Part shown: positions 8,603 through 37,055 of the stretch, one piece after another
Layout of the letters: every line of letters begins with the position of its first letter
How positions within the stretch are numbered: the first letter of the stretch is position 1
Origin: Dictyostelium discoideum
Taxonomy: Eukaryota
DNA: 64,000 nucleotides
Reading direction: 5' to 3'
NCBI GenBank assembly: GCA_000004695.1
Contig: CM000151.3
Coordinates: 7,904,001 to 7,968,000 of the forward strand
The notes under the pieces: model-generated
Told to the model about the DNA's origin: nothing
What the model saw: the letters and a program-made list of their open reading frames with translations, nothing else
The model's database searches: none
Program-made: the position numbers and the translations under genes

Positions 8603-9487
8603 ATGATGAACAATATTGATAAAATTGAAAAAGATATTATGTATATGAACCCCATTGATTCTAAATTTTTTTTCAAACCTACTGTTATTAATGATAATAA
8701 TAATAATAATAATATAAATAATATAAATAATATAAATAATAATTATACAAAAATAAATAATTATAATAATCTTATAAATACCAATATTAACAATAAAAAT
8801 AATAGTAATAGTAATAGTGTATTTTCACAACCAGATCAAGCAGCTACTATTACCAATATATCAAACCCTTGTACATTAGCATCGCCAACACCATCATCAC
8901 CATCGAATAATAAACTTTTAATGATACAAAGAGATGATATGGAAAAAGATATAAATGATTATTCAAATTTAAATTTTGACCCTCATCAAATGTCAAAACC
9001 ATCATATCATCATCATTCTCATTCTCATTCTCATCATTCTCATTCTCATTCTCATTCTCAAAATAGTCATTACCTTAACAATTTACAACTTCAAAATTTA
9101 CAAAACTTTCAACAACAACATCAACAAAAGCCAATTTCACCACCACCATCATCTTTAAATATAGTTGTAAATAGAAATAGGTTTTTTGAAAATTCTGATC
9201 CAAACTTTTCTTACTTTTCTCATAATGAATCAAATATATCTGACTTTTTCTACAACTATGTACATTATGATCATAATTTCAACTTTAATGAAAATTCTTT
9301 TATTTTTAATACCAACAACAACAATAATAATAATAATGAAATAAATAATAGTGTTATTGGTAATGATATTTTACAGACAGTACCTCCTTCACCAACTCCA
9401 ACACCACCTCCACCACCACAACAACAACAATTTACACAAATTAAAAATACAAATTATATTTTCGTACCCCAACAATTAAAACAATAG
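8603..9487 (+). CDS. Hypothetical low-complexity protein, 294 aa (Asn-rich, HS dipeptide repeat, Pro/Gln-rich C-terminus).
   Basis: ORF with Dictyostelium-typical poly-N, (HS)n and PTPTPPPPPQQQQ tracts. No recognisable domain. Confidence 0.4.
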   Translation: MMNNIDKIEKDIMYMNPIDSKFFFKPTVINDNNNNNNINNINNINNNYTKINNYNNLINTNINNKNNSNSNSVFSQPDQAATITNISNPCTLASPTPSSPSNNKLLMIQRDDMEKDINDYSNLNFDPHQMSKPSYHHHSHSHSHHSHSHSHSQNSHYLNNLQLQNLQNFQQQHQQKPISPPPSSLNIVVNRNRFFENSDPNFSYFSHNESNISDFFYNYVHYDHNFNFNENSFIFNTNNNNNNNNEINNSVIGNDILQTVPPSPTPTPPPPPQQQQFTQIKNTNYIFVPQQLKQ

Positions 9488-11484: not shown

Positions 11485-12629
11485 TTAATATAGTATTATT
11501 ATTTCTACCAATGATAGTAATAATAATAAAGTTAATGAAATTATTGATAATTTTAAAGAATTACTACTTTGATATTGTTGTTCATCAATATCTCTATAGG
11601 TTACAGTAAAGATTGTATTTTTACATGGATTTTTTTTTTGAATTTCAATATCAATATATTTACAATGTTTAGTGAAACATGATGATCTTGAATAAAAATT
11701 TTCAACCATTCTACATCTATTTCTAATGATACATTCAGTTTTTCTTGTAAGATGTTCAAAATGATCGTATGTATCATTTAAACAGTTTCCACTATTACAA
11801 TCACAATATTTACCAATACCACATGAATTTATTGAACATTGTTTTTCACTATTATTCTCATTAATTGAATTAGAATCATTTAATGATTCTATACAAGTTC
11901 CTTTTTTTGAACACTAAATATCATTATTATTATTATTATTAAAAGATAATTAATATTATTATTATTTTAATTATTTTTAATTATTTAAAAATAAATAAAT
12001 ATTACAGTTAAATTTGGTTTACATTGATAATCAAAATCATCATTAAAAGTACAAGTTTCATTTAAATCTAAACTATATGGTAATGAACATAATTGAGTTG
12101 ATTCTGAACAAAATGCAAGTGTATCACAAGCAACATCTGAACCTGAACATGATTGATTTAGTTGAATTGAGTAAACACATTGTGAATCAACACATGCGAA
12201 TCCACCTTGACATTCGTTATCGGATGTACATGTATTTGATTTTAGTTTACAAAAACCATCAATACATGAAACTTTATCAACACCAAGTGAACAATCTTGA
12301 TCCCTTGAACACTGTTCACCGACACTTGAAAACCTAATATTATCACATTGATTGGCTTCTGAACATAATAAACCAATATCACAAACTGAGCTATCTACAC
12401 AAGATTCTCCATATCTTTTAGGTTGAATACAAACATACTTTTCAAATTCATTATTCGGATCTGATCCACATATTAATCCATCTGAACATGATCCAATTTT
12501 AAAACCATCTGTAACACATTCTTCACCTTCTTTTAAACATTTAAAACATTTTGGTTCAATTTGTTGACAATTTATTAAAAAATTATTTAATTTTAAAATT
12601 ATTATTAAAAATATTATTATTATTCTCAT
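11485..12629 (-). CDS. Secreted cysteine-rich (EGF/disintegrin-like spacing) protein with a probable GPI-anchor signal. Two exons: 12006..12629 and 11485..11913.
   Basis: N-terminal signal peptide MRIIIIFLIIILKLNNFLINCQQ. About 50 Cys in CxxxxC / CxDG patterns. The C-terminal hydrophobic tail SLKLSIISLTLLLLLSLVEIIILY is typical of GPI attachment. Intron 11914..12005 has a GTAATA donor and TAG acceptor. Exon 2 translation has no stops. Confidence 0.65.
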
Positions 12630-13202
12630 AATTATTTGTTGGATTTTTGGATATTTTTTTATTTTAGTATAAATAATTTTAAAAATAAATAAATAAATAA
12701 ATAAAAAAAACTTTTTTAAAAAAATATATATATCAATATATAAATAAAATTAAAATGAATTATTTTTTTTTTAAACATATTTTTTTCAAATTCCAACAAC
12801 ATTTAATATTATTTAATATTTTTATTATAAAAAAAAAAAAAAAAAAAATTAAATATTTTAGATAAATTTAACACACTAACTATTTATTATTTATTTGTAA
12901 TAAAGGTGTGTTGGGGAAATTTGGTGTTTGTGTGTGTATGTTTTTAAGGTGTGGGTTTGATAAAATCATATCATGTAAAATTCGATATTATTAATATTAT
13001 TATTTTTTTTTATTTCATTTTCTACATATTTTTTTTATTCAAATTTATAAAAATTGTAATTTCAACATTTTTCAATACTATCTAAACTATTATAAAAGAT
13101 TCTAAAAGAATCTTTTCAGAATTCTTTTTTATTTTTTTTTTTTTAATTTTCACATTTTGACAACAAATAATTTTTCATTTTATATTTTTTTTTTTTTTTT
13201 TT

Positions 13203-26690: not shown

Positions 26691-28265
26691 CTAGTTTTTA
26701 ATTGATTGATAAATATTACCACCTTCTCTAGGATTAATTTTAATAACATCAATTTGATTTACTTCACCATCAATTATTTCAAAACACCAATGACCTTTAA
26801 AAGAAAAAGTTCTTTCATGTAAAGGTAAGAGAGAGAATGGATTACCTTTTTGAACAGATCTTCTTTTTTGACCACGTAGAGTTGCAGTGATTGATTTACT
26901 ATTGTTCCTAATTGTTAGGTGACCAATTGAGGATGAACCTAAAAAGTTTGTTGAAGATCTTGAAAAAGTAAGAAAATAACTTGAGGTATTATAAACCTTG
27001 AAAGAATCAATGATTGCCAATTCATCACCTTTACACTTTGAAAATGGTTCGAAATTACCAACCAAAGTTGAGAAATAGTTTTGAGTGTATTTTAAAAAGT
27101 CACCAATTTTACCAAGTCCAATCTCTGGACGAGTTGCAGAGATTACACCATTTTGAGAATTTAAAAAGAATGAAAATGATTGATTCTGGAATTCATATTT
27201 TGTATAGTAGAATGGAATATAAACAAGCGAGAATAGTTTCTCGTTGAATTGGATAGTGGATGAAACATTCTTTACAAATTTTGATTGTTCTTGTTGTTTC
27301 AAGTATTCAATTGACATTGATTGCTCAGTTTCTAATAGGTGGTTCAAGTAATCACGTTTCCAAACTACGTCTGGTTCATAACGGGCCAATACCTCCACTT
27401 GGTCCAATTGAGCGAATTGGTTGAACTCGTCCAATGATTTCTCAATGACATTGTTGAAATCAAATTGCTGGCTTACCATACAATTCATTATACTTTCATC
27501 CGATAACAAATCCATTGAATTACATGCTAATAATAGTATTCTATTAATTGTTCTCGTTATATATCCATCAACTTTATTCCATTTGATTGATTTATCCTTT
27601 AAAATATCTTCAGAGTTTTTATTATTTAAATTGTTGTTATTTCCATTATTATATAATTCAACATTTTCTTTATTTAAAATTGTTGCTGATGTTGATGTTA
27701 TTGTTTTTTTATTTTTATCAGCATTATTTGAATTATTTAAACTATTATTATTAACATTATAATAGTTATTGTTATTATATGTTGAATTTGTGTTACCATA
27801 TTTATCATATAAAGCATTTGTATTTAATTTTGAATCATACGTAACGAAACCTGAAAATTCAACATTATAATTTACTCTATATGAATAAAATGGTATATAA
27901 ACTTTTTTTAAATGATTATCAACCAACTTTTTAAATCCAGTTGGTGGTAACCAAAGTGAATTTAACCATGAATCAAATGTATTGGTCGCAGTTTTTGGTG
28001 ATATTTGAAATTCTGATAATTGAACACATAACATTTTACTATCAATATTATTATTATGTTCTTTAAATTCTTTAAATAATTGATATTTATTATGATTAAT
28101 TTGTGATATTATTGTTGGTGATGGTTGTTGTGATGATGGTAATGATGGTGCAATTGGTTTCGGTTGGATTGTTAGTGTACTATCATTACCATTTTCATTA
28201 TCATCACAATCACAATAATTATTAGATTGTGGAAAATAAGGTTGAGGTAAATTATTGTTATCCAT
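26691..28265 (-). CDS. Hypothetical protein, 524 aa.
   Basis: Long clean ORF starting MDNNNLPQPYFPQSNNYCDCDD with a largely non-repetitive C-terminal 300 aa. No recognisable domain. Confidence 0.55.
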   Translation of the reverse strand: MDNNNLPQPYFPQSNNYCDCDDNENGNDSTLTIQPKPIAPSLPSSQQPSPTIISQINHNKYQLFKEFKEHNNNIDSKMLCVQLSEFQISPKTATNTFDSWLNSLWLPPTGFKKLVDNHLKKVYIPFYSYRVNYNVEFSGFVTYDSKLNTNALYDKYGNTNSTYNNNNYYNVNNNSLNNSNNADKNKKTITSTSATILNKENVELYNNGNNNNLNNKNSEDILKDKSIKWNKVDGYITRTINRILLLACNSMDLLSDESIMNCMVSQQFDFNNVIEKSLDEFNQFAQLDQVEVLARYEPDVVWKRDYLNHLLETEQSMSIEYLKQQEQSKFVKNVSSTIQFNEKLFSLVYIPFYYTKYEFQNQSFSFFLNSQNGVISATRPEIGLGKIGDFLKYTQNYFSTLVGNFEPFSKCKGDELAIIDSFKVYNTSSYFLTFSRSSTNFLGSSSIGHLTIRNNSKSITATLRGQKRRSVQKGNPFSLLPLHERTFSFKGHWCFEIIDGEVNQIDVIKINPREGGNIYQSIKN

Positions 28266-28303
28266 TAATTAAGTAATTTATATATATCTATATGTTTAAC
28301 AAA

Positions 28304-28347
<44 letters not shown>

Positions 28348-28596
28348 AAAAAAAATTAAAAAAAAAAACATTACAAAAAATTTTTTCATAAATGATATCT
28401 TGATAATAACTTAATTTTTTACATTTTTTTTTTTTATTTTTTTTTTTATTATTTAATTTTTTTTTTTTATTTTTTTCAACAAAACTAAAAAGATTAAATG
28501 GATCAATGAAAACTCACATTTTTACGAAAAATTATTTCTAGTTTTTTTTTTTTTTTTTTTTGGTGAAATTATTTTTAGTTATAATTTAGGGGATCG

Positions 28597-28631
<35 letters not shown>

Positions 28632-28695
28632 AATTATTTTTATTAGTTTTTAATTAGTTATTATTTTGAGTAATGTTTTTTTTTTTTTTTTTTCT

Positions 28696-30880
28696 TTAAA
28701 TAAAACCATGACCACCATCTAATAATGGATTAGTGGAATAACATACTGGAACTTTTTCACAACAATTTTCTTTATCAATTGGTACAGTTTTCATGGCACA
28801 ATGTAAACCTTTTCTTTCACAGTTTAGGTCTTCACAAGTTAAACAATCATTTCTACTTTTAACACAGCATTCTTCACCAAAGTGATTGATTCTACATTCA
28901 TGTTTTGGTGGACATCTTAATGAGCATTTTGGTGGTGGTCTATGGGCAACAACGCAACATTCTTTTCCATGTTGATCAACTTTACATTCATGGCCTGGTG
29001 GACATCTCAATGAACATTTATCGTGGTGAACTTTAACACAACATTCTTCACCAAAGTGGTTGACTCTACATTCATGTCTTGGTGGACATCTTAAAGAGCA
29101 TTTTGGTGGTGGTCTATGGGCAACAACGCAACATTCTTTTCCATGTTGATCAACTTTACATTCATGGCCTGGTGGGCATCTCTTATTACATTTTTCATGT
29201 TGTGGTGGGTGTGGTCTTTCTGAACGGACACAACATTTTGAACCATCATGTCTAATTTTACATTCAAAACCTCTACCACAATCTAAATCACAAACTTCAT
29301 CACAATGAATCTTTACACAACATTTTTTACCATGATCATCAAATTTACATTCATGTTTTGGTGGGCATCTTAATGAACAAACTTCTGGTGGTGGTGGTCT
29401 ATGGGATCTGACGCAACATTCTTTACCATTGTGATCAACTTTACATTCATGGCCATGTGGACATCTTAATGAACATCTATCATGGTGAACCTTTACACAG
29501 CATTGATGACCTTGGTCATTAAATCTACATTCATGATTTGGTGGACATCTTAAAGAGCAAACTGGTGGTTTTGGTGGTTGAGTTGGACCACTTGGAACAC
29601 ATTTAGCAGTTTTACCATCTTTACATTCACAATAGAAACCATCTGGACAATTTACATTTGAACATGGGTTAGTGTTACCACCTGATGTACTTGATGAACC
29701 GGTTGTTGGACTTGGAACACATTTAGCAGTTTTACCATCTTTACATTCACAATGGAAACCATCTGGACAAGTTACATCTTTACATGGATCTGGATGACCA
29801 CCTGATGTACTTGATGAACCGGTTGTTGGACTTGGAACACATTTAGCAGTTTTACCATCTTTACATTCACAATGGAAACCATCTGGACAGTCAACATCTC
29901 TACATGGATCTGGATGACCACCTGATGTACCTGTTGATGAACTACCGCCTGATGTACCTCCTCCATTTGGTACACAATTTACGCCATTACTATCCTCTAC
30001 ACAAATATGTCCAATTGGACATAAGGTTGTTAAACATGATGATACACCAGCAGTTGATGAACTGGTTCCTGGTAAACCTGTTCCACCAGTTGTTGATGCA
30101 AGACAAGTTGCAACATCATTTACCATTGAACAATGATAACCTTCTGGACAATGTGTAGTTGAACATGAACTTACACCACCTGATGAACTACCACTTGATG
30201 AACTACCTGATGTACCACCTGATGAACTACCACCTGATGTACCACCTGATGAACTACCACCTGATGTACCACCTGATGAACCACCACCAGATGTTGAACT
30301 ACCAGAGCTTAAACCTTCACCTTTTTTTATAAATTTAAGAAATGAAAAAAATTAATATATTTAGATTTTATTTTATTTTATTTTATTTTATTTTTTTTAA
30401 TCTTTTTACTTACAAATTGATTCACCTGGGCAACAGGAAGTTGGATTTGAACAAGAGTTCTTTTGGAAACTACATGATTTACCTAATAAGGCACATTCTT
30501 TAATCTTGGCATCAGAACAAGAATACTCGGTTGGAGTTGTAATTTTAATAAATCCATCAAGATTGAAGCATTTATTTGATACTTCAACAACTTGGTTATT
30601 GGATGAATTTCTATAACAACTATTTTCATATGTACAAGTATCAAATGTACCTTTAGAGCAAGCCCATTTTTGTTCACCACAACATGGTGTATAATTTATA
30701 ACAATACATTCCGAAGATTTATGACATTCTTCTTCATTAGTAATTTTATTACAATCTAAAATTAAAAAAAAAAAATAAAAAAAAAAAATTTTATATTAAT
30801 ATTTTATATTATATTAAAATATTATAAATCTAATATCAATTTATACCCGTCGCATAGGATTTTGATACAAGGAATATCAT
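28696..30880 (-). CDS. Secreted cysteine-rich tandem-repeat protein, 3 exons: 30847..30880 (possibly extends to 30912), 30414..30755, 28696..30320.
   Basis: Exon 2 encodes a Cys-rich module (DCNKITNEEECHKSSECIVINYTPCCGEQKWACSKG...SCCPGESI). Exon 3 encodes an S/G/T linker, then 3 repeats of about 39 aa (HPDPCKDVTCPDGFHCECKDGKTAKCVPSPTTGSSSTSGG), then about 9 repeats of CSLRCPPxHECKVDxHGKECCVxxHRPPPK. Donors GTATAA at 30846 and GTAAGT at 30413, acceptors TAG and AAG. Phases are consistent from ATG 30880. An upstream ATG at 30912 would give a textbook signal peptide, but needs one extra A in the A5 run at 30897..30901. Confidence 0.65.
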
Positions 30881-32344
30881 AAAAAATACTCCAATATTTT
30901 TTAGAAACAACATCCTTTATTATTTTTTTATTTTTAACTTAGTTAGTTATTGTTTTTTTTTTAATTTGAATTGATTAAAAATAAAATTGAATAATGAATT
31001 AAAAAAAAAAAAAAATATTAATTATTAATACTTTTTTTTTTTTTTGGTTTTTTATTTATTTATTTTTTTTTTTTTATTTATTCAATTTTAAATTTAAAAA
31101 AAAAAAAATAATAAATTATTATTATTGTGCATAATTTATTATTAATTTATTTGATTGTAATTCAGAAAATAGCAAAAAATTAAGAACAACACCACGCACA
31201 TTCACAGCTGTGTAGTAAATTTGGTATATATTAAAAAAACACTACCATAGTGGTAAATATATAATAGTAGCAATTGATATATTTCTACCACTACATATTT
31301 ATTATTCAATTTTTTTTTTTTTTCCCACTCACCCACCTCTGCCACTCTATTATACAAATCTCACCTATATTATTTTTTTTTTTTTACAAATTAACACAAA
31401 AAACAACAAATAAAAAAAATTATGTTTTTTCATATATACATTCATTGTGGGGTATCTATTTTATATCATTGATTTTTTTTCCTTCATTATTTTTAATCAA
31501 CACCCTTTTCATATAATTATTTTTAACATACCCCAAATTTAAACACACAAAAAAAAAAAAAAAAAAAAATTAAATAATTTAAATGAAAAAAGTTATAATG
31601 TACCAATTTACAAATTGAAATTAAAAAAAGCGTATATTATTTATTATTATTATTATTTTTATTTTTATTATTTTTATTATTATTATTAACTTTTTCATTT
31701 TTACAAAAAAAAAAAAAAATAAAATAAAAATAAAATAAAATAAAATATAATATAAAGAAAAAAATAATACTAAATTTAAGAAATCAAATTTGAATAAAAA
31801 TAGGTGTTGGGAATTAATGATACTTACCTTCCCCAATAAACATTTTAGTTTTATTGACATTAATAACAATTTTTAAATTTTTAATATTTTTATTTTGTTT
31901 TATTGAAACATTAAAACAATTTCAATTTATTAATTTAATATAAATCGATTGAAAATTAATTGGAGAAAATTGATTATTATTTTTTTAAAAAAATTTGTTA
32001 AACTTTTCAAAAAAATTTGAAATTATAAATATAATTAAAGGTGTTTGATTTGAGTTAATTCAATAATTCCCAATTCAAAAAAAAAGTTAATTCAATAATT
32101 AAGTAAATTTATTACCCAAATTACATATTCCAAAAAAACTTTTTTGAAATGGATAATGCACTTCTCCTTGAGATACTTGTTCTCATTTTATTTTATAGTT
32201 TTAAATTACATGGCCTAAATAAGGGGTTGGTGAGTAGATTATTTTTTTTTCGTTGTTTTGCTATTGTTACAAAAAACTCTGTATTTGTTGTTTGATATAA
32301 AAAACATTACGATTTACGCTATTAAAAATTTTGGTTTCAAAAAT

Positions 32345-32415
32345 GGCTCCTTAGCATAGTGGTATTGCGCTTCCCTAGTAAGGAAGAGGTCATGAGTTCG
32401 ATCCTCATAGGAGCC
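32345..32415 (+). tRNA. tRNA-Thr(AGU): tRNA-Thr (anticodon AGT), 71 nt.
   Basis: Cloverleaf read directly. Acceptor GGCTCCT pairs with AGGAGCC. D-arm GCAT/AGTGGTA/TTGC. Anticodon stem CTTCC/GGAAG with loop CTAGTAA (anticodon AGT). T-arm ATGAG/TTCGATC/CTCAT. Confidence 0.93.
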
Positions 32416-32445
32416 TTTTAAAAAACCACAACTTTATAGTCGCAT

Positions 32446-32455
32446 GTTCGATTCC
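32446..32455 (+). promoter_or_regulatory. External B-box (exB, GTTCGATTCC), 30 nt downstream of the tRNA-Thr gene.
   Basis: A second copy of the T-arm B-box consensus sits 30 nt after the tRNA 3' end. This is a known feature of most Dictyostelium tRNA genes. Confidence 0.6.
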
Positions 32456-32706
32456 CAAATTTGTAATGAATTACATTAATAATATATTTATTGTGTTAAT
32501 TTATTATGATAAAAATTGGCAATAACATTAAAAATATATATCCAGTGGAAAGATTTTTCATCATATATAAAATGAAAAATTTTAAAATTAAAAAAAAATT
32601 TTAAAATTAAAATAAAATTACAATAATGAACAGTTTTATTTTTAAAGTACAAAATTAATCCCAAATATTTAATTTTTATTATTATTTTATGGAATTTTAT
32701 TTTATT

Positions 32707-35143
32707 TTATAAATGAGAAAGATCAATTATATTAATATATTTTGTAATAAATAAAGGATTTAAACTATTGATAAAATTCATATTAGAATTTCTAATATAA
32801 ATAGTTTGTAAACCAAAAGGTATGCAACCATCAGCGGAAATATTTTGATTAAATTCAGAGTTTAGAATGAATAATTTTTTCAAAAGTTTTGGTAAAACAT
32901 TATTTCCAATTGGTTGATTGAAATGATAACCTAAATTTAGAGATTCTATTGAATTTGGTAAATCACCAACTTCAATTTTACGATTAAAATAATTTAGTGT
33001 CAAAGTTTTTAAAGATGTAGTATTTTTTAACATTTCTCTTAAACCATTATTTGTACCACCAACACAAAAATTGGATGAACTATTTGAACCGAAACCACCT
33101 TTATTACTAATACCATAGCAGTCATATTCATCATTTTTCACGGTTATCTCTCTATTGTAACCACCGAGATTTAAAGATTCTAAAGTTGGAGGTAAAGTAT
33201 CGGCAGGAATGATTTGATTGAAATGGTAACCGAAATTCAAAGATTTTAATTTGGTATGAATGAAAATACCTTGTGGTATAATTTGATTGAATTTTGAGCC
33301 GAAATCAATACTTGTTAAAGTTTGAGTCATCATTGATAAAGGTCTATTGAATTTATTACCAAAATCAATACTAGTGATACTTGAAGGACACAATTTAATA
33401 TCTCTATCGAATGCACGACCAAATTTAATCTCTCTAATTGAGTTTGGTAAAGACTTTATACCAATATCACTATTGAAATGTTCTCCGAAATGAATTGAGG
33501 TTAAATTATAATTTGAAGAGATATCATTTGCTTTAATATTTTGATTAAATTCTGAATCGAAAACAAGTCTTGTGATTGATTTTGGAATTGGATTAAATGA
33601 AATTGATTCTTGATTTGAACAAGAATTGAATTTATAATCTAAAGTTTTAACAGAATCTGGAATTGAACCAATTTCAATAACACCTTTATAGGATCTTGGA
33701 TCCAAAATCAATGATGTCAATGAGGATGGAAGTTGACCCATTTTAATGGTTTGTTGAAATTTATGACCAAATTGTAAATGTTTCAATTGTTTTGGAAGCC
33801 AATTACCATCCAATGATTGATTGAAACTATCACCAAATGTAATACTAATGACATTGTCACTAATTACACCTTTAGCAATTCTCTGATTGAAACCATAACT
33901 AAATCGAATTGAGGATATTGATGGTGGTAGCAATCTATCTTGAATTACATTATACTCTTTTTCAAATTCAATGGATTTTAATCCCTCTGGTAATGAATTC
34001 ACTCTAATCATTGATAATTCTAATAATGATGAATTTGATAATATTGAAGATGATGATGAATTTGAAATACCATTATTAATACTATTACTACTACTACCAA
34101 TATCACTTGAACCACTACTACTGCTACTACAATTACCACCATCACTATAACTATCATCATCGTCAATATCAGAATCATAGGAATCTTCATCAGCATCATC
34201 ATCATTATCATCATGATAATTTAATACCATTGATTGTAAATAACCTTTGAATTTATAATCCACCAATTGAATTGGTGTTAAAAATACCTTTTTATTTGCA
34301 TGAATATTATAAAGTCTAAGATGAAATAAAATTTGAGTTTTAATAACAATATTTCTCCAAACTTGACGAAATAATAAATAATTTCTATCATTAACACCGT
34401 TTGTTGTTGTTGTGGTTGTCATTATAGTGGTACTACTTCTACTAGTTGTAGTTGTAGTTGTAGTTGTTGTAATTTCACCATCATTACCATTTATTCTTTC
34501 ATTTTTTAATGTTATTATTTTATTTAAATCTTTTTCTTCAATTATTGAATTATTATTATCATTATTATTATTATAAATATTATTATTACTATTTTTATTA
34601 TTATTATTAAATTGGTAATCTTTGTTTATTATATTATTATTATTTTCAATTATTATTAATATTGAATAGTCAAATTTATTATTTCCACAACATTTATTAA
34701 GTGAATTGTGTGTATTTATTATTTTATTTTTACAATCGGTAGTTTTATTTTTTAATTTTAACAATCTGGTGAATTCATCTAATAACTGATATTGATTATA
34801 GTTTAATCCATAATAAGATATTGCTTCTTTATTTACAGTTTTATTTTCAATTAATCTATTATTAATTAATTTGGTAAGTATTTGATTTTTTGGGAAAATG
34901 AAAATAAAAATAAAAAAAAAATAAAAGTGTGCGTGAAAATATCTGAAAAAAAAAATAAAAAAAATAAAAAAAAAACAAAAAATAAAAAAATTAAAAATAT
35001 ACATACCTAAAATTATTACAATAATCCAATAATCCATCGTATGATATATATAATCCATTTATTGATAATATTAATATGCAATCTAAAAATGATTGTTGAT
35101 TATACTCTTTTTTTATTAAGAAATCATAAATTAAATTATCCAT
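32707..35143 (-). CDS. FNIP-repeat protein (Dictyostelium FNIP/LRR-like repeat family), 2 exons: 35007..35143 and 32707..34855. An alternative acceptor gives 32707..34942.
   Basis: About 15 tandem ~22-aa repeats of the form Lxxxxx(L/I)xFGxxFNQxI (for example SIHFGEHFNSDIGIKSLPNSIREIKFGRAFDRDIK), diagnostic of FNIP repeats. Exon 1 is MDNLIYDFLIKKEYNQQSFLDCILILSINGLYISYDGLLDYCNNFR, with donor GTATGT at 35006. Both candidate acceptors (CAG at 34943 and TAG at 34856) are in phase. Confidence 0.7.
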
Positions 35144-36047: not shown

Positions 36048-37055
36048 ATGGAAGAAAAAATAAAATTTTATTTTGAAATAATTGATTTCCAAAATCAAAA
36101 ATTTAAAATTCAAGAATTTACCTCAAAATTAATTGGTTTAAAAGAAGAAAGTTTTACAACATTTAAACCAATAGTATATGAAAAATATTTAAATTGGACT
36201 CAATCAATTGAGGAATCAATTTTAAAAACAAATGGTACAATAAATAAATCAATTTTTGAAGAAATTTTTTCCTATTGCGGTTACATCGGAGAATTCCTGG
36301 AATATGAGCCTTTTATAGTATTTTTAAAATTTACAACATTTGGTATAATTTTAGATGATTATATATTTGAAAAAATTAATTCACTAAATATGAAATTAAA
36401 TGAAAAAGAAAAACTTATTAATAGTTTAATATATTATAATAATAAAAATGAAAATAAAATTGGTTTCGAATTCTGGGAAATAATAAATGAATTTCAAAAT
36501 TTTACACATAAAGAGTCATTTCAGAGAATAATAAATGCAAATAGTTTATGGATAAAATCATCAATTGATTCAAGGAATATTTCAAATTCCCCAATAAATT
36601 CAAGATGTTCATTTAATGAATATTTTGAAAAAAGATCATCAGATGCTTCGGGTGATTTTATTTTAACAATTTCTATGATTGGAATAATGGATAATTATAT
36701 TGAAAATTCTATAATAGAAAGTAAAGAATTTCAAACTATAAATTACCATGCAAAGTCTTTTTTTTTATTAATAAATGATTTATATTCATTTAATAGAGAA
36801 ATTAATGAAAATGATTTATTAAACTATATAAAGATATTAGCAATTCAATTAAATTCAATACAATTATCAATTGATAAAACAATTGAATTAATAATTGATC
36901 ATTATTTGAAATTTTTATCGTCAATTGAAACAATCTTAAAATTATACCAAAATGATCAATCAACATATCAATTATTAAAACAAGTTTTCCAAAATTCAAA
37001 TAAAATTTTATCTGGTATTTATTTTGCACATAAAAAAAGTAAAAGATATAATTAA
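36048..37055 (+). CDS. Terpene synthase (class I, microbial-type TPS), 335 aa.
   Basis: Aspartate-rich DDxx(D/E) motif ILDDYIFE and NSE/DTE motif NDLYSFNRE (ND-x2-S-x3-E) at the expected spacing of about 140 aa. The size matches the Dictyostelium TPS family. Confidence 0.75.
   Translation: MEEKIKFYFEIIDFQNQKFKIQEFTSKLIGLKEESFTTFKPIVYEKYLNWTQSIEESILKTNGTINKSIFEEIFSYCGYIGEFLEYEPFIVFLKFTTFGIILDDYIFEKINSLNMKLNEKEKLINSLIYYNNKNENKIGFEFWEIINEFQNFTHKESFQRIINANSLWIKSSIDSRNISNSPINSRCSFNEYFEKRSSDASGDFILTISMIGIMDNYIENSIIESKEFQTINYHAKSFFLLINDLYSFNREINENDLLNYIKILAIQLNSIQLSIDKTIELIIDHYLKFLSSIETILKLYQNDQSTYQLLKQVFQNSNKILSGIYFAHKKSKRYN

Follow-up and report, generated by a model that had tools for sequence, protein, structure and literature searches.

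Spore coat proteins SP96/CotA, SP70/CotB, SP60/CotC and SP75/CotD of Dictyostelium have a known role in storage, secretion and assembly, and are composed of a signal peptide, a Dicty_spore_N domain, cysteine units of type C-x4-C-x5-C-x(6-10)-C (C4C) and mucin-like linkers (PMC3068167, PMC11574339, PMC4931340). Between their cysteine units, members of the family carry mucin-like Ser/Thr/Gly repeats together with basic proline repeats, and their cysteine content is 7-13 % (PMC3068167). SP87, encoded by pspD (cDNA PL3, DDB_G0277379), is listed on chromosome 2 at ~7.935 Mb with 678 aa; pspD is listed as a prespore/spore coat gene and a SpaA ChIP target (PMC5923282, PMC11574339, PMC4931340), reported as recurrent on "social/cheater" gene lists (bioRxiv 10.1101/2022.10.21.513250). 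SP85 has been published as a cellulose-binding linker protein of the spore coat (titles cited in PMC9485057 and PMC3160888). Comparable cysteine modules are encountered in the FOLN hairpin of follistatin/SPARC (BM-40), where the FS domain also has a Kazal half, and in avian CREMP, a metazoan extracellular structural protein with many short C-x4-C-x5-C-x8-C modules and highly repetitive DNA.

The locus considered here lies on chromosome 2 of D. discoideum AX4, in a window of 64,000 nucleotides (the whole stretch of DNA analysed). The original prediction of a gene for a secreted, cysteine-rich and repeat-built protein was confirmed, the gene occupying 28696..30913 of the minus strand. It displayed three exons (Table 1) and a 677-codon coding sequence without internal stops, for a precursor of 677 aa (13 % Cys) that is predicted to be secreted. 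We consider it about 90 % probable that this AX4 gene is intact, encodes a structural glycoprotein of the spore coat with a modular build (almost certainly SP87, from pspD) and carries two gene conversions of the AX4 lineage.

Table 1. Features of the spore coat gene and its upstream region (window positions)
Feature	Position	Strand	Description
Putative promoter elements	31187..31337	-	G/T-rich islands TGTGCGTGGTGTTG (31200..31187) and GGTGGGTGAGTGGG (31337..31324)
Exon 1	30847..30913	-	ATG at 30913 and signal peptide MLFLKNIGVFFMIFLVSKSYA (30913..30851); phase-1 end (…GCG ACG G/GTATAA)
Intron 1	30756..30846	-	91 nt, GT..AG (GT at 30846, AG at 30757..30756), 4 % GC, phase 1
Exon 2	30414..30755	-	Dicty_spore_N domain, residues 23-138
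Intron 2	30321..30413	-	93 nt, GTAAGT..AG, 7.5 % GC, phase 1
Exon 3	28696..30320	-	Gly/Ser linker, 5 + 8 Cys units, C-terminal cap, TAA stop 28698..28696
Gly/Ser(Thr) mucin-like linker	30175..30294	-	TRF; microsatellite-like repeat of 12-27 nt, length polymorphic between genomes
Five C4C (EGF/FOLN-like) units	29599..30165	-	C-x4-C-x5-C-x(6-10)-C, regular expression; residues 189-377
Eight C-x3-C-x5-C-x8-CC units	28864..29559	-	Regular expression; residues 391-622
C-terminal cap	28741..28845	-	CLTCEDLNCERKGLHC…CCEKVPVC, residues 629-663; repeats last third of Dicty_spore_N
Conversion tract 1, putative acceptor	29797..29889	-	93-nt exact copy of 29677..29769; replaces ancestral …CPANYKCEVH-GSQAKCVP--GGITSGG…; adds Cys289
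Conversion tract 1, putative donor	29677..29769	-	Unit 4 tail and linker
Conversion tract 2, putative acceptor	29096..29175	-	80-nt exact copy of 28922..29001; replaces ancestral …GTECVFGERGEQLCVVKRPH…; adds Cys533
Conversion tract 2, putative donor	28922..29001	-	Unit 7

The gene model was the longest open product among all enumerated GT..AG combinations. The same exon boundaries gave open products of 667-696 aa in five other Dictyostelium genomes (L010, L011, L012, L013 and D. citrinum L014), despite the drift of intron 1, which measured 91, 103, 105, 105, 133 and 134 nt over the six genomes and was not kept to multiples of three. Most of the variation in protein length was due to indels in the Gly/Ser linker.

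By its domain content, the protein belongs to the dictyostelid spore coat family defined by Dicty_spore_N and FOLN/EGF-like modules (PMC11574339; PMC4931340), where the original prediction had found no family that could be named. The Dicty_spore_N domain (Pfam PF04562) directly followed the signal peptide and covered profile positions 1-114 of 115 (67.3 bits against a cut-off of 22.3, E = 2.5e-18). The five C4C units fit the spacing published in PMC3068167; Gly/Ser/Thr linkers stood between them, the final three units formed a 120-bp tandem array, and their EGF matches were weak only. In the series of C-x3-C-x5-C-x8-CC units, short KVHHD linkers alternated with basic proline-rich HRPPPP linkers. 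Eight such units were counted rather than the "about nine" CSLRCPPxHEC units announced, and all units carried four or five cysteines, not the six of the "6-Cys repeat architecture" initially described. Against Pfam FOLN the whole protein scored 20.7 bits, just below the cut-off of 21.1, and the fifth unit of this second series (B5) passed alone with 22.7 bits. The C-terminal cap matched Dicty_spore_N positions 80-114 in Pfam (23.6 bits against 22.3), and its motif also ended proteins P0010 and P0015. Linkers such as GGTSGGSSS, HRPPPP and ERPHPPQHEK lay between the cysteine units, and the mature protein contained 13.3 % Cys.

Homology searches with the full protein or the N domain alone returned almost no matches. 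An exhaustive HMMER search over 1.84 billion representatives returned no more than 22 matches; among the eleven of these for which source names were looked up, ten bear dictyostelid names (Dictyostelium, Tieghemostelium, Polysphondylium, Heterostelium and Synstelium), in agreement with a restriction to Dictyostelia, and the top match has a gene-model label only. The named matches included a "prespore protein" and "spore coat protein SP70".

SP96, SP70, SP60 and SP75 belong to the same family but come from separate genes with IDs and lengths of their own (600, 537, 429 and 555 aa, respectively); the protein studied here has in addition the C-terminal cap and eight units of type C-x3-C-x5-C-x8-CC. 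These units were common to two SP85/PsB-like paralogues, P0001 (D. dimigraforme) and P0012 (D. cf. discoideum, a candidate SP85 orthologue), which displayed the same CSL[KR]CPPxHEC…CC and CDL[DN]CGRGFECKI[KR]HDGS[KQ]CC units and also proline-rich linkers, with 61-68 % identity over the shared units. Both nevertheless carried only four units, together with Thr-rich tetrapeptide repeats and a different N-terminal cysteine-rich domain that is not Dicty_spore_N. With the follistatin/SPARC hairpin, the protein shared the C-x3/4-C-x5-C-x8-C(x)C spacing, a Pfam FOLN match and a predicted β-hairpin; its units were stand-alone hairpins in arrays, and a Pfam search for a Kazal family match at E <= 1 gave none. 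Since only FOLN-type hairpins were present, the protein is not an FS-domain protein and the resemblance is at motif level. The likeness to CREMP was one of architecture, the modules of the latter being far more uniform.

The predicted structure agreed with this modular organization. The AF2 model (pLDDT 62, moderate confidence) showed 14 hairpins of two strands each, with disordered linkers between them and one β-hairpin per C4C unit. The best Foldseek matches in the PDB, all weak, were EGF arrays of NELL, follistatin and EGF domains of Notch; a PDB sequence search matched the Gly/Ser linkers only. A single-sequence AF2 model of the N domain (pLDDT 52) was too poor for use.

Exon 1 had been suspected of carrying a signal peptide placed out of frame by one A, from an A5 run and an ATG at 30912, so that translation would have to start at ATG 30880, where the signal peptide is poor. 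The gene would then be damaged (a pseudogene) or contain a homopolymer sequence error, a reading that rested solely on these two counts, without support from any tool, and to which we leave practically no room. The ATG occupied 30913..30911 and the run, situated inside exon 1, was an A6 (30902..30897); with these corrections exon 1 read MLFLKNIGVFFMIFLVSKSYA in frame and joined exon 2 in frame through a phase-1 intron. The reported frameshift was thus a counting error. ATG 30913 and ATG 30880, 33 nt apart, shared a common frame, and from the former the spliced product was open for 677 aa. The signal peptide of 21 aa, judged by eye, displayed a basic n-region (MLFLK), an 11-residue hydrophobic core (NIGVFFMIFLV) and the end SKSYA before TD, with small residues at -3 and -1. 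A check of the homopolymer against the five other genomes revealed the same A6 and start codon; exon 1 was nucleotide-identical in L010 to L013 and displayed one synonymous difference in D. citrinum, and independent annotations of orthologues use the same ATG. Neither a disrupted frame nor lost constraint was found: dN/dS was about 0.06 for the N domain, indicating strong purifying selection, against 0.26 in the repeats, and all 85 cysteines were invariant. The gene is intact, ordinary and already known. Its identification as pspD (almost certain) is based on position, family and length. The flanking ORFs exactly matched DDB_G0277389 and tps4/DDB_G0277385, the FNIP gene corresponded to DDB_G0277387, and the gene lay between DDB_G0277389 and DDB_G0277387, a place at which any ID it bears would be out of series. 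An unnamed spore coat paralogue located near pspD would be the alternative, and has in its favour that a direct sequence match to a record named SP87 was not obtained, that the length differs by one residue (none of the enumerated splice combinations gave 678 aa) and that strict positional numbering would put DDB_G0277379 beyond tps4, on the opposite side. We give it a slim chance: this was the sole Spore_N/FOLN/Cys-rich spore-coat-like gene within the 64-kb window, large-scale scaling of IDs to coordinates placed 0277379 no farther than about 7-12 kb from 0277385 and 0277389, and 677 against 678 aa was a unique length fit, the remaining family members having clearly different lengths and IDs. 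The identity with cotD/SP75 was rejected (DDB_G0283149, 555 aa), as was a second cysteine-rich ORF at 11488..12749 as pspD, which displayed no family match. A literature search on the neighbouring DDB_G IDs and "SP87" gave no matches.

Exon 3 of this probable pspD gene contained repeats that are nearly identical at the DNA level, as originally noticed, although the three units measured 120 bp instead of about 117 bp. They spanned 29590..29937 (TRF: period 120, 2.9 copies, 92 % matches; starts at 29922, 29802 and 29682). Units 1 and 2 differed at 5 of 120 nt and shared an exact run of 93 nt (29889..29797 = 29769..29677), whereas units 2 and 3 differed at 25 of 120 nt. The CSLRCPPxHEC...CC units displayed a period of 174 bp with 96 % identity at 28858..29182 (TRF) and included an exact run of 80 nt (29175..29096 = 29001..28922); the identical stretches announced at 28960..29080 and 29090..29200 proved to be a real pair with only approximate coordinates. 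Outside the Gly/Ser microsatellite, the longest exact repeats of the orthologues were 30-37 nt, and the 93- and 80-nt runs were found only in AX4, far beyond both chance and orthologue levels. AX4, as a single reference assembly, was compared here with four genomes of the D. discoideum complex and D. citrinum. In the tract zones it differed from all others by 18-26 %, these differing among themselves by 1-2.5 %, and the outgroup D. citrinum had the non-AX4 state at both tracts. The cysteine count rose from 85 to 87, each tract contributing one. As judged by this comparison, both tracts appear derived and private to the AX4 lineage, represented by that one assembly. Absent conversion, the ancestral sequences expected were CPANYKCEVH at 29797..29889 and GTECVFGERGEQLC at 29096..29175.

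Two intragenic gene conversions, with minimum lengths of 93 and 80 nt, most probably produced these tracts: each overwrote one unit with its neighbour's copy, at offsets of 120 nt (tract 1) and 174 nt (tract 2), in the AX4/NC4 lineage after its split from the other sequenced isolates. The initial proposal of a "very recent expansion or gene conversion" was upheld in its second half only. Arrays with 92-96 % DNA identity do look like fresh duplications, and a very recent tandem expansion by unequal crossing-over would have added new units; yet all six genomes, D. citrinum included, shared the composition of 5 + 8 units plus cap, in the same order and aligning one-to-one, and the AX4 change concerned the content of two units only. 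Because unit number is unchanged across genomes, this is not an expansion, and we regard such an origin as very improbable. An artefact of the reference assembly or of its consensus is a somewhat more serious contender, although still unlikely. The tracts were present in one assembly, a look-up of the AX4 exon-3 ORF in read-based assemblies gave no independent AX4-derived contig, and the discrepancy between the listed 678 aa and the 677 aa of the model hints at a version difference. A collapse or mis-join would normally alter copy number, however, and unit number and reading frame were exactly kept; tracts of 80-93 nt with offsets of 120 and 174 nt fit well inside single Sanger reads, and their edges lay inside units as clean mosaics, with the ancestral RDVD and KDVT codons kept beside the copied segment.

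Conversions of the AX4 lineage remain the preferred reading, and two short ones, adding one cysteine each, would separate the AX4 allele from the five other Dictyostelium genomes. This difference is relevant to the use of AX4 SP87 as "wild-type", to primers and probes placed in the repeats, and to concerted evolution of repeat-built matrix proteins. If the conversions are real and private to NC4/AX4, the added Cys289 and Cys533 and the two homogenised units might measurably alter disulfide cross-linking or coat permeability of the standard laboratory strain relative to wild isolates, which we consider unlikely; SP87 would in that case offer a convenient instance in which concerted evolution has remodelled a protein of the extracellular matrix inside one species. 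The gene and its family are already known, and lineage-specific conversion is only a modest new detail; since both were characterised in the 1990s, the locus has little discovery value. A false frameshift/pseudogene flag is removed here from an intact gene, and the modules of the protein are mapped precisely.

From the N-terminus, this map runs through signal peptide, Dicty_spore_N, Gly/Ser linker, five C4C hairpins, eight C-x3-C-x5-C-x8-CC units and cap. By analogy with the family literature, prespore cells would synthesise SP87 and keep it in prespore vesicles until culmination, when it would be secreted and then incorporated in the protein-cellulose-protein spore coat. The numerous small disulfide-knotted hairpins may serve as rigid beads that also offer sites for interaction or cross-linking, and the Ser/Thr/Gly linkers would bear O-glycans. 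A mature mass of 69 kDa is predicted, which fits an 87-kDa glycoprotein, the gap to the apparent mass being one that O-glycans would explain.

The two G/T-rich islands upstream of the gene (Table 1) are putative promoter elements, presumably similar to the CA-rich/G-box elements of prespore promoters. For pspD, the summit of SpaA ChIP was reported at a distance of 253 bp on the upstream side of the gene (PMC5923282 supplement), near window position 31166. Around the islands, the 5' flank was otherwise highly A+T-rich.

The gene on the minus strand (28696..30913) was modelled in three exons, the longest open model when all nearby GT..AG combinations were enumerated. Its product of 677 aa, without internal stop, displayed 87 cysteines, and its coding sequence had a GC content of 37%, against 22% for the window. 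Both introns were GT..AG, in phase 1, 91 and 93 nt long and only 4-8% GC. Exon boundaries were in frame across genomes, with intron lengths varying from 91 to 134 nt (first) and from 74 to 93 nt (second). Read base by base, the upstream ATG occupied 30913..30911 rather than starting at 30912, and the homopolymer was A6 (30902..30897) instead of an A5 run at 30897..30901. This ATG lies 33 nt from that at 30880, in the same frame. Exon 1 reads MLFLKNIGVFFMIFLVSKSYAT, then G and, across the exon boundary, GTATAA; the leftover G is joined to AT of exon 2 to form Asp, followed by CNKITNEEEC…. Five other genomes carry the same start codon and A6 run, namely L011 and L012 (labelled 'D. discoideum'), L010 and L013 ('D. 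cf. discoideum') and L014 (D. citrinum). Exon 1 was nucleotide-identical to AX4 in the first four and displayed one synonymous difference in D. citrinum; the same ATG was the annotated start in independent annotations of the orthologues. The gene has a normal, undamaged signal peptide, and the claim that the signal-peptide exon is out of frame by one A came from a miscount.

Features of the window and of related contigs (window positions unless a contig is named)
Feature	Position	Strand	Remark
Exon 1	30913..30847	-	modelled
Exon 2	30755..30414	-	modelled
Exon 3	30320..28696	-	modelled
C-terminal cap, CxxC…C…C…CC…C	28741..28845	-	internal repeat vs 30414..30520 (-)
ORF, DDB_G0277389	26691..28265	-	exact match (D. 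discoideum AX4)
DDB_G0277387, FNIP-repeat gene	32707..35058	-	
tps4/DDB_G0277385 ORF	36048..37055	+	
G/T-rich islands, putative promoter elements	31187..31200, 31324..31337, ~31529..31547		minus-strand reading
tRNA-Thr(AGT) gene	32345..32416	+	between pspD and FNIP gene
tRNA-linked interval, L009	787..6366		coordinates as listed
tRNA-linked interval, L012	1..2028		coordinates as listed
tRNA-linked interval, L014	12618..17105		coordinates as listed
Second Cys-rich ORF pair	11488..12749	-	8.5-10% Cys

The neighbouring genes DDB_G0277389, DDB_G0277387 and tps4 place the window on chromosome 2 of AX4. With a probability of about 95%, the gene at 28696..30913 is pspD, encoding spore coat protein SP87. 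pspD corresponds to DDB_G0277379 at ~7.935 Mb of chromosome 2 (PMC5923282 supplement). As numbering on this chromosome proceeds by ~1.2 kb per DDB_G unit, 0277379 is expected inside the window, where the target was the only spore-coat-like gene over 64 kb. Of the two genes separating 0277385 from 0277389, the FNIP gene takes the only free ID, so the ID of the target must be out of series. The published length of pspD is 678 aa (PMC4931340 supplement, a table of true residue counts, e.g. pkaR 327 and cotA 600), against 677 aa here, a discrepancy possibly due to a different version or cDNA. In the same supplement, the remaining family members are 600, 537, 429, 555, 464 and 532 aa long and have IDs far from that of pspD; cotD/SP75 is DDB_G0283149. 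A lookup of the exact 677-aa sequence in the protein collection returned no match.

Residues 23-138 matched Dicty_spore_N (Pfam, 67.3 bits, cut-off 22.3). The protein, initially assigned to no nameable family, is therefore placed in the dictyostelid spore coat family already described (PMC11574339; PMC4931340); gene and family are both known. The exon 3 product starts with a Gly/Ser(Thr) linker, followed by five C-x4-C-x5-C-x6-10-C units (A units, residues 189-377) and eight C-x3-C-x5-C-x8-CC units (B units, residues 391-622), with linkers alternating between KVHHD and basic proline-rich stretches. Taken alone, the C-terminal cap scored 23.6 bits against Dicty_spore_N, over Pfam positions 80-114 (the final third of the domain); the same cap also terminates related proteins of other dictyostelids. 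Unit B5 alone exceeded the Pfam FOLN threshold, and A units gave only weak EGF matches. Single-sequence AF2 (pLDDT 62, moderate confidence) predicted each Cys unit as a two-strand β-hairpin and the linkers as disordered. Top PDB fold matches of this model, all weak, were NELL EGF arrays, follistatin and Notch EGF repeats, and a PDB sequence search with the protein found no sequence relatives. An exhaustive HMMER search over 1.84 billion representatives yielded 22 matches; source names were obtained for 11, the top match having only a gene-model label, and ten of these 11 were dictyostelid names, including 'prespore protein' and 'spore coat protein SP70'. Related proteins P0010 and P0015 displayed N domain, repeats and cap in the same order as the target, while the SP85-like P0001 (D. 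dimigraforme) and P0012 (D. cf. discoideum) had CSLKCPP… and CDLDCGRGFEC… units in common with it. These features show a member of the spore coat family that is secreted, rich in disulfides and built like beads on a string. The predicted mature protein (656 aa, 69.4 kDa, 13.3% Cys) is compatible in mass with an 87-kDa glycoprotein.

The near-identical DNA repeats of the original prediction were real. TRF reported 2.9 copies of a 120-bp unit at 29590..29937 (92% matches) and, at 28858..29182, a period of 174 bp (96% matches), and the longest exact repeats of AX4 were 93 nt (29889..29797 = 29769..29677) and 80 nt (29175..29096 = 29001..28922), against at most 30-37 nt in the orthologues (Gly/Ser microsatellite excluded). 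Of the two origins proposed, recent expansion was contradicted by the 5 + 8 units and cap common to six orthologues, which aligned unit for unit, and conversion was upheld by two AX4-only tracts. AX4 stood apart from all others at exactly two places: where the five other genomes display …CPANYKCEVH-GSQAKCVP--GGITSGG… (unit A3) and …CPPGTECVFGERGEQLCVVKRPH… (unit B5), AX4 has copies of units A4 and B7, respectively. Within the tract zones AX4 was 18-26% different from every other genome, versus 1-2.5% among the other D. discoideum-complex genomes; outside them, AX4 and L011 differed by 0.2-4%. Since D. citrinum and the others share the non-AX4 state at both tracts, the AX4 state is derived. The tracts are known from the AX4 reference assembly alone, and their being an assembly artefact is very unlikely given that they are short and keep both frame and unit number. 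The comparison thus points to two intragenic gene conversions over short tracts, dating from after the separation of the AX4 lineage from the others. As donor and acceptor show zero differences, the conversions were, in qualitative terms, probably recent relative to that separation. Each tract contributes one cysteine (residues 289 and 533), giving 87 in AX4 versus 85 elsewhere, and all 85 shared cysteines were invariant. Lengths ranged from 667 to 696 aa, mostly through variation in Gly/Ser/Thr linkers.

dN/dS values were ~0.06 for the N domain and ~0.26 for the repeats, and such low values mark the gene as functional and constrained. L011 and L012 (GCA_054859385.1 and GCA_054859355.1) displayed ~3% mismatches and many indels relative to AX4 over 8-12 kb of 20365..34428, and dS of pspD was ~0.066 overall and only 0.012 in the N-domain exons. 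The repeat region thus seems to have diverged more than its flanks, and further small conversions may be the cause.

Published work lists pspD among prespore genes and among the targets of SpaA (PMC5923282). From this status and the family literature, prespore cells would make the protein, keep it in prespore vesicles and secrete it at culmination, and its Cys hairpin units may mediate assembly with cellulose and other coat proteins. Because units have an odd number of Cys, disulfides could also form between units or between chains, and the linkers would be O-glycosylated. SP85 is a cellulose-binding linker protein of the coat according to titles cited in PMC9485057 and PMC3160888, and SP85-like proteins share C-x3-C…CC units with the target; by analogy, putative binding of cellulose or coat proteins by its C-x3-C…CC half is a reasonable guess.

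Between 275 and 630 bp upstream of the ATG, the otherwise extremely A+T-rich 5' flank displayed G/T-rich islands, which read as CA-rich on the opposite strand. These putative promoter elements are similar to the CAE/G-box elements known from prespore promoters. The SpaA ChIP summit for pspD lies at -253 (PMC5923282 supplement).

The tRNA-Thr(AGT) gene was kept in all six genomes. In one 'D. discoideum' isolate, an RVT_1 retroelement ORF of 1448 aa (non-LTR type) lay ~230 bp away from it, and in D. citrinum a gag-pol/integrase element of 1360 aa (LTR type) lay ~330 bp away; AX4 had neither. Such a pattern suggests retrotransposon insertion that is polymorphic and targeted to tRNA genes, as is typical of Dictyostelium.

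The second Cys-rich ORF pair of the window displayed a hydrophobic, signal-like start (MRIIIIFLIIILKL…), and matched neither a Pfam family nor pspD. On L001 (D. dimigraforme), a short gene (8612..9396, 182 aa) lay directly downstream of P0001 (6001..8266); its C-x3-C…CC-type units (8892..9245) matched pspD residues ~342-662, which indicates a probable tandem gene pair with this module.
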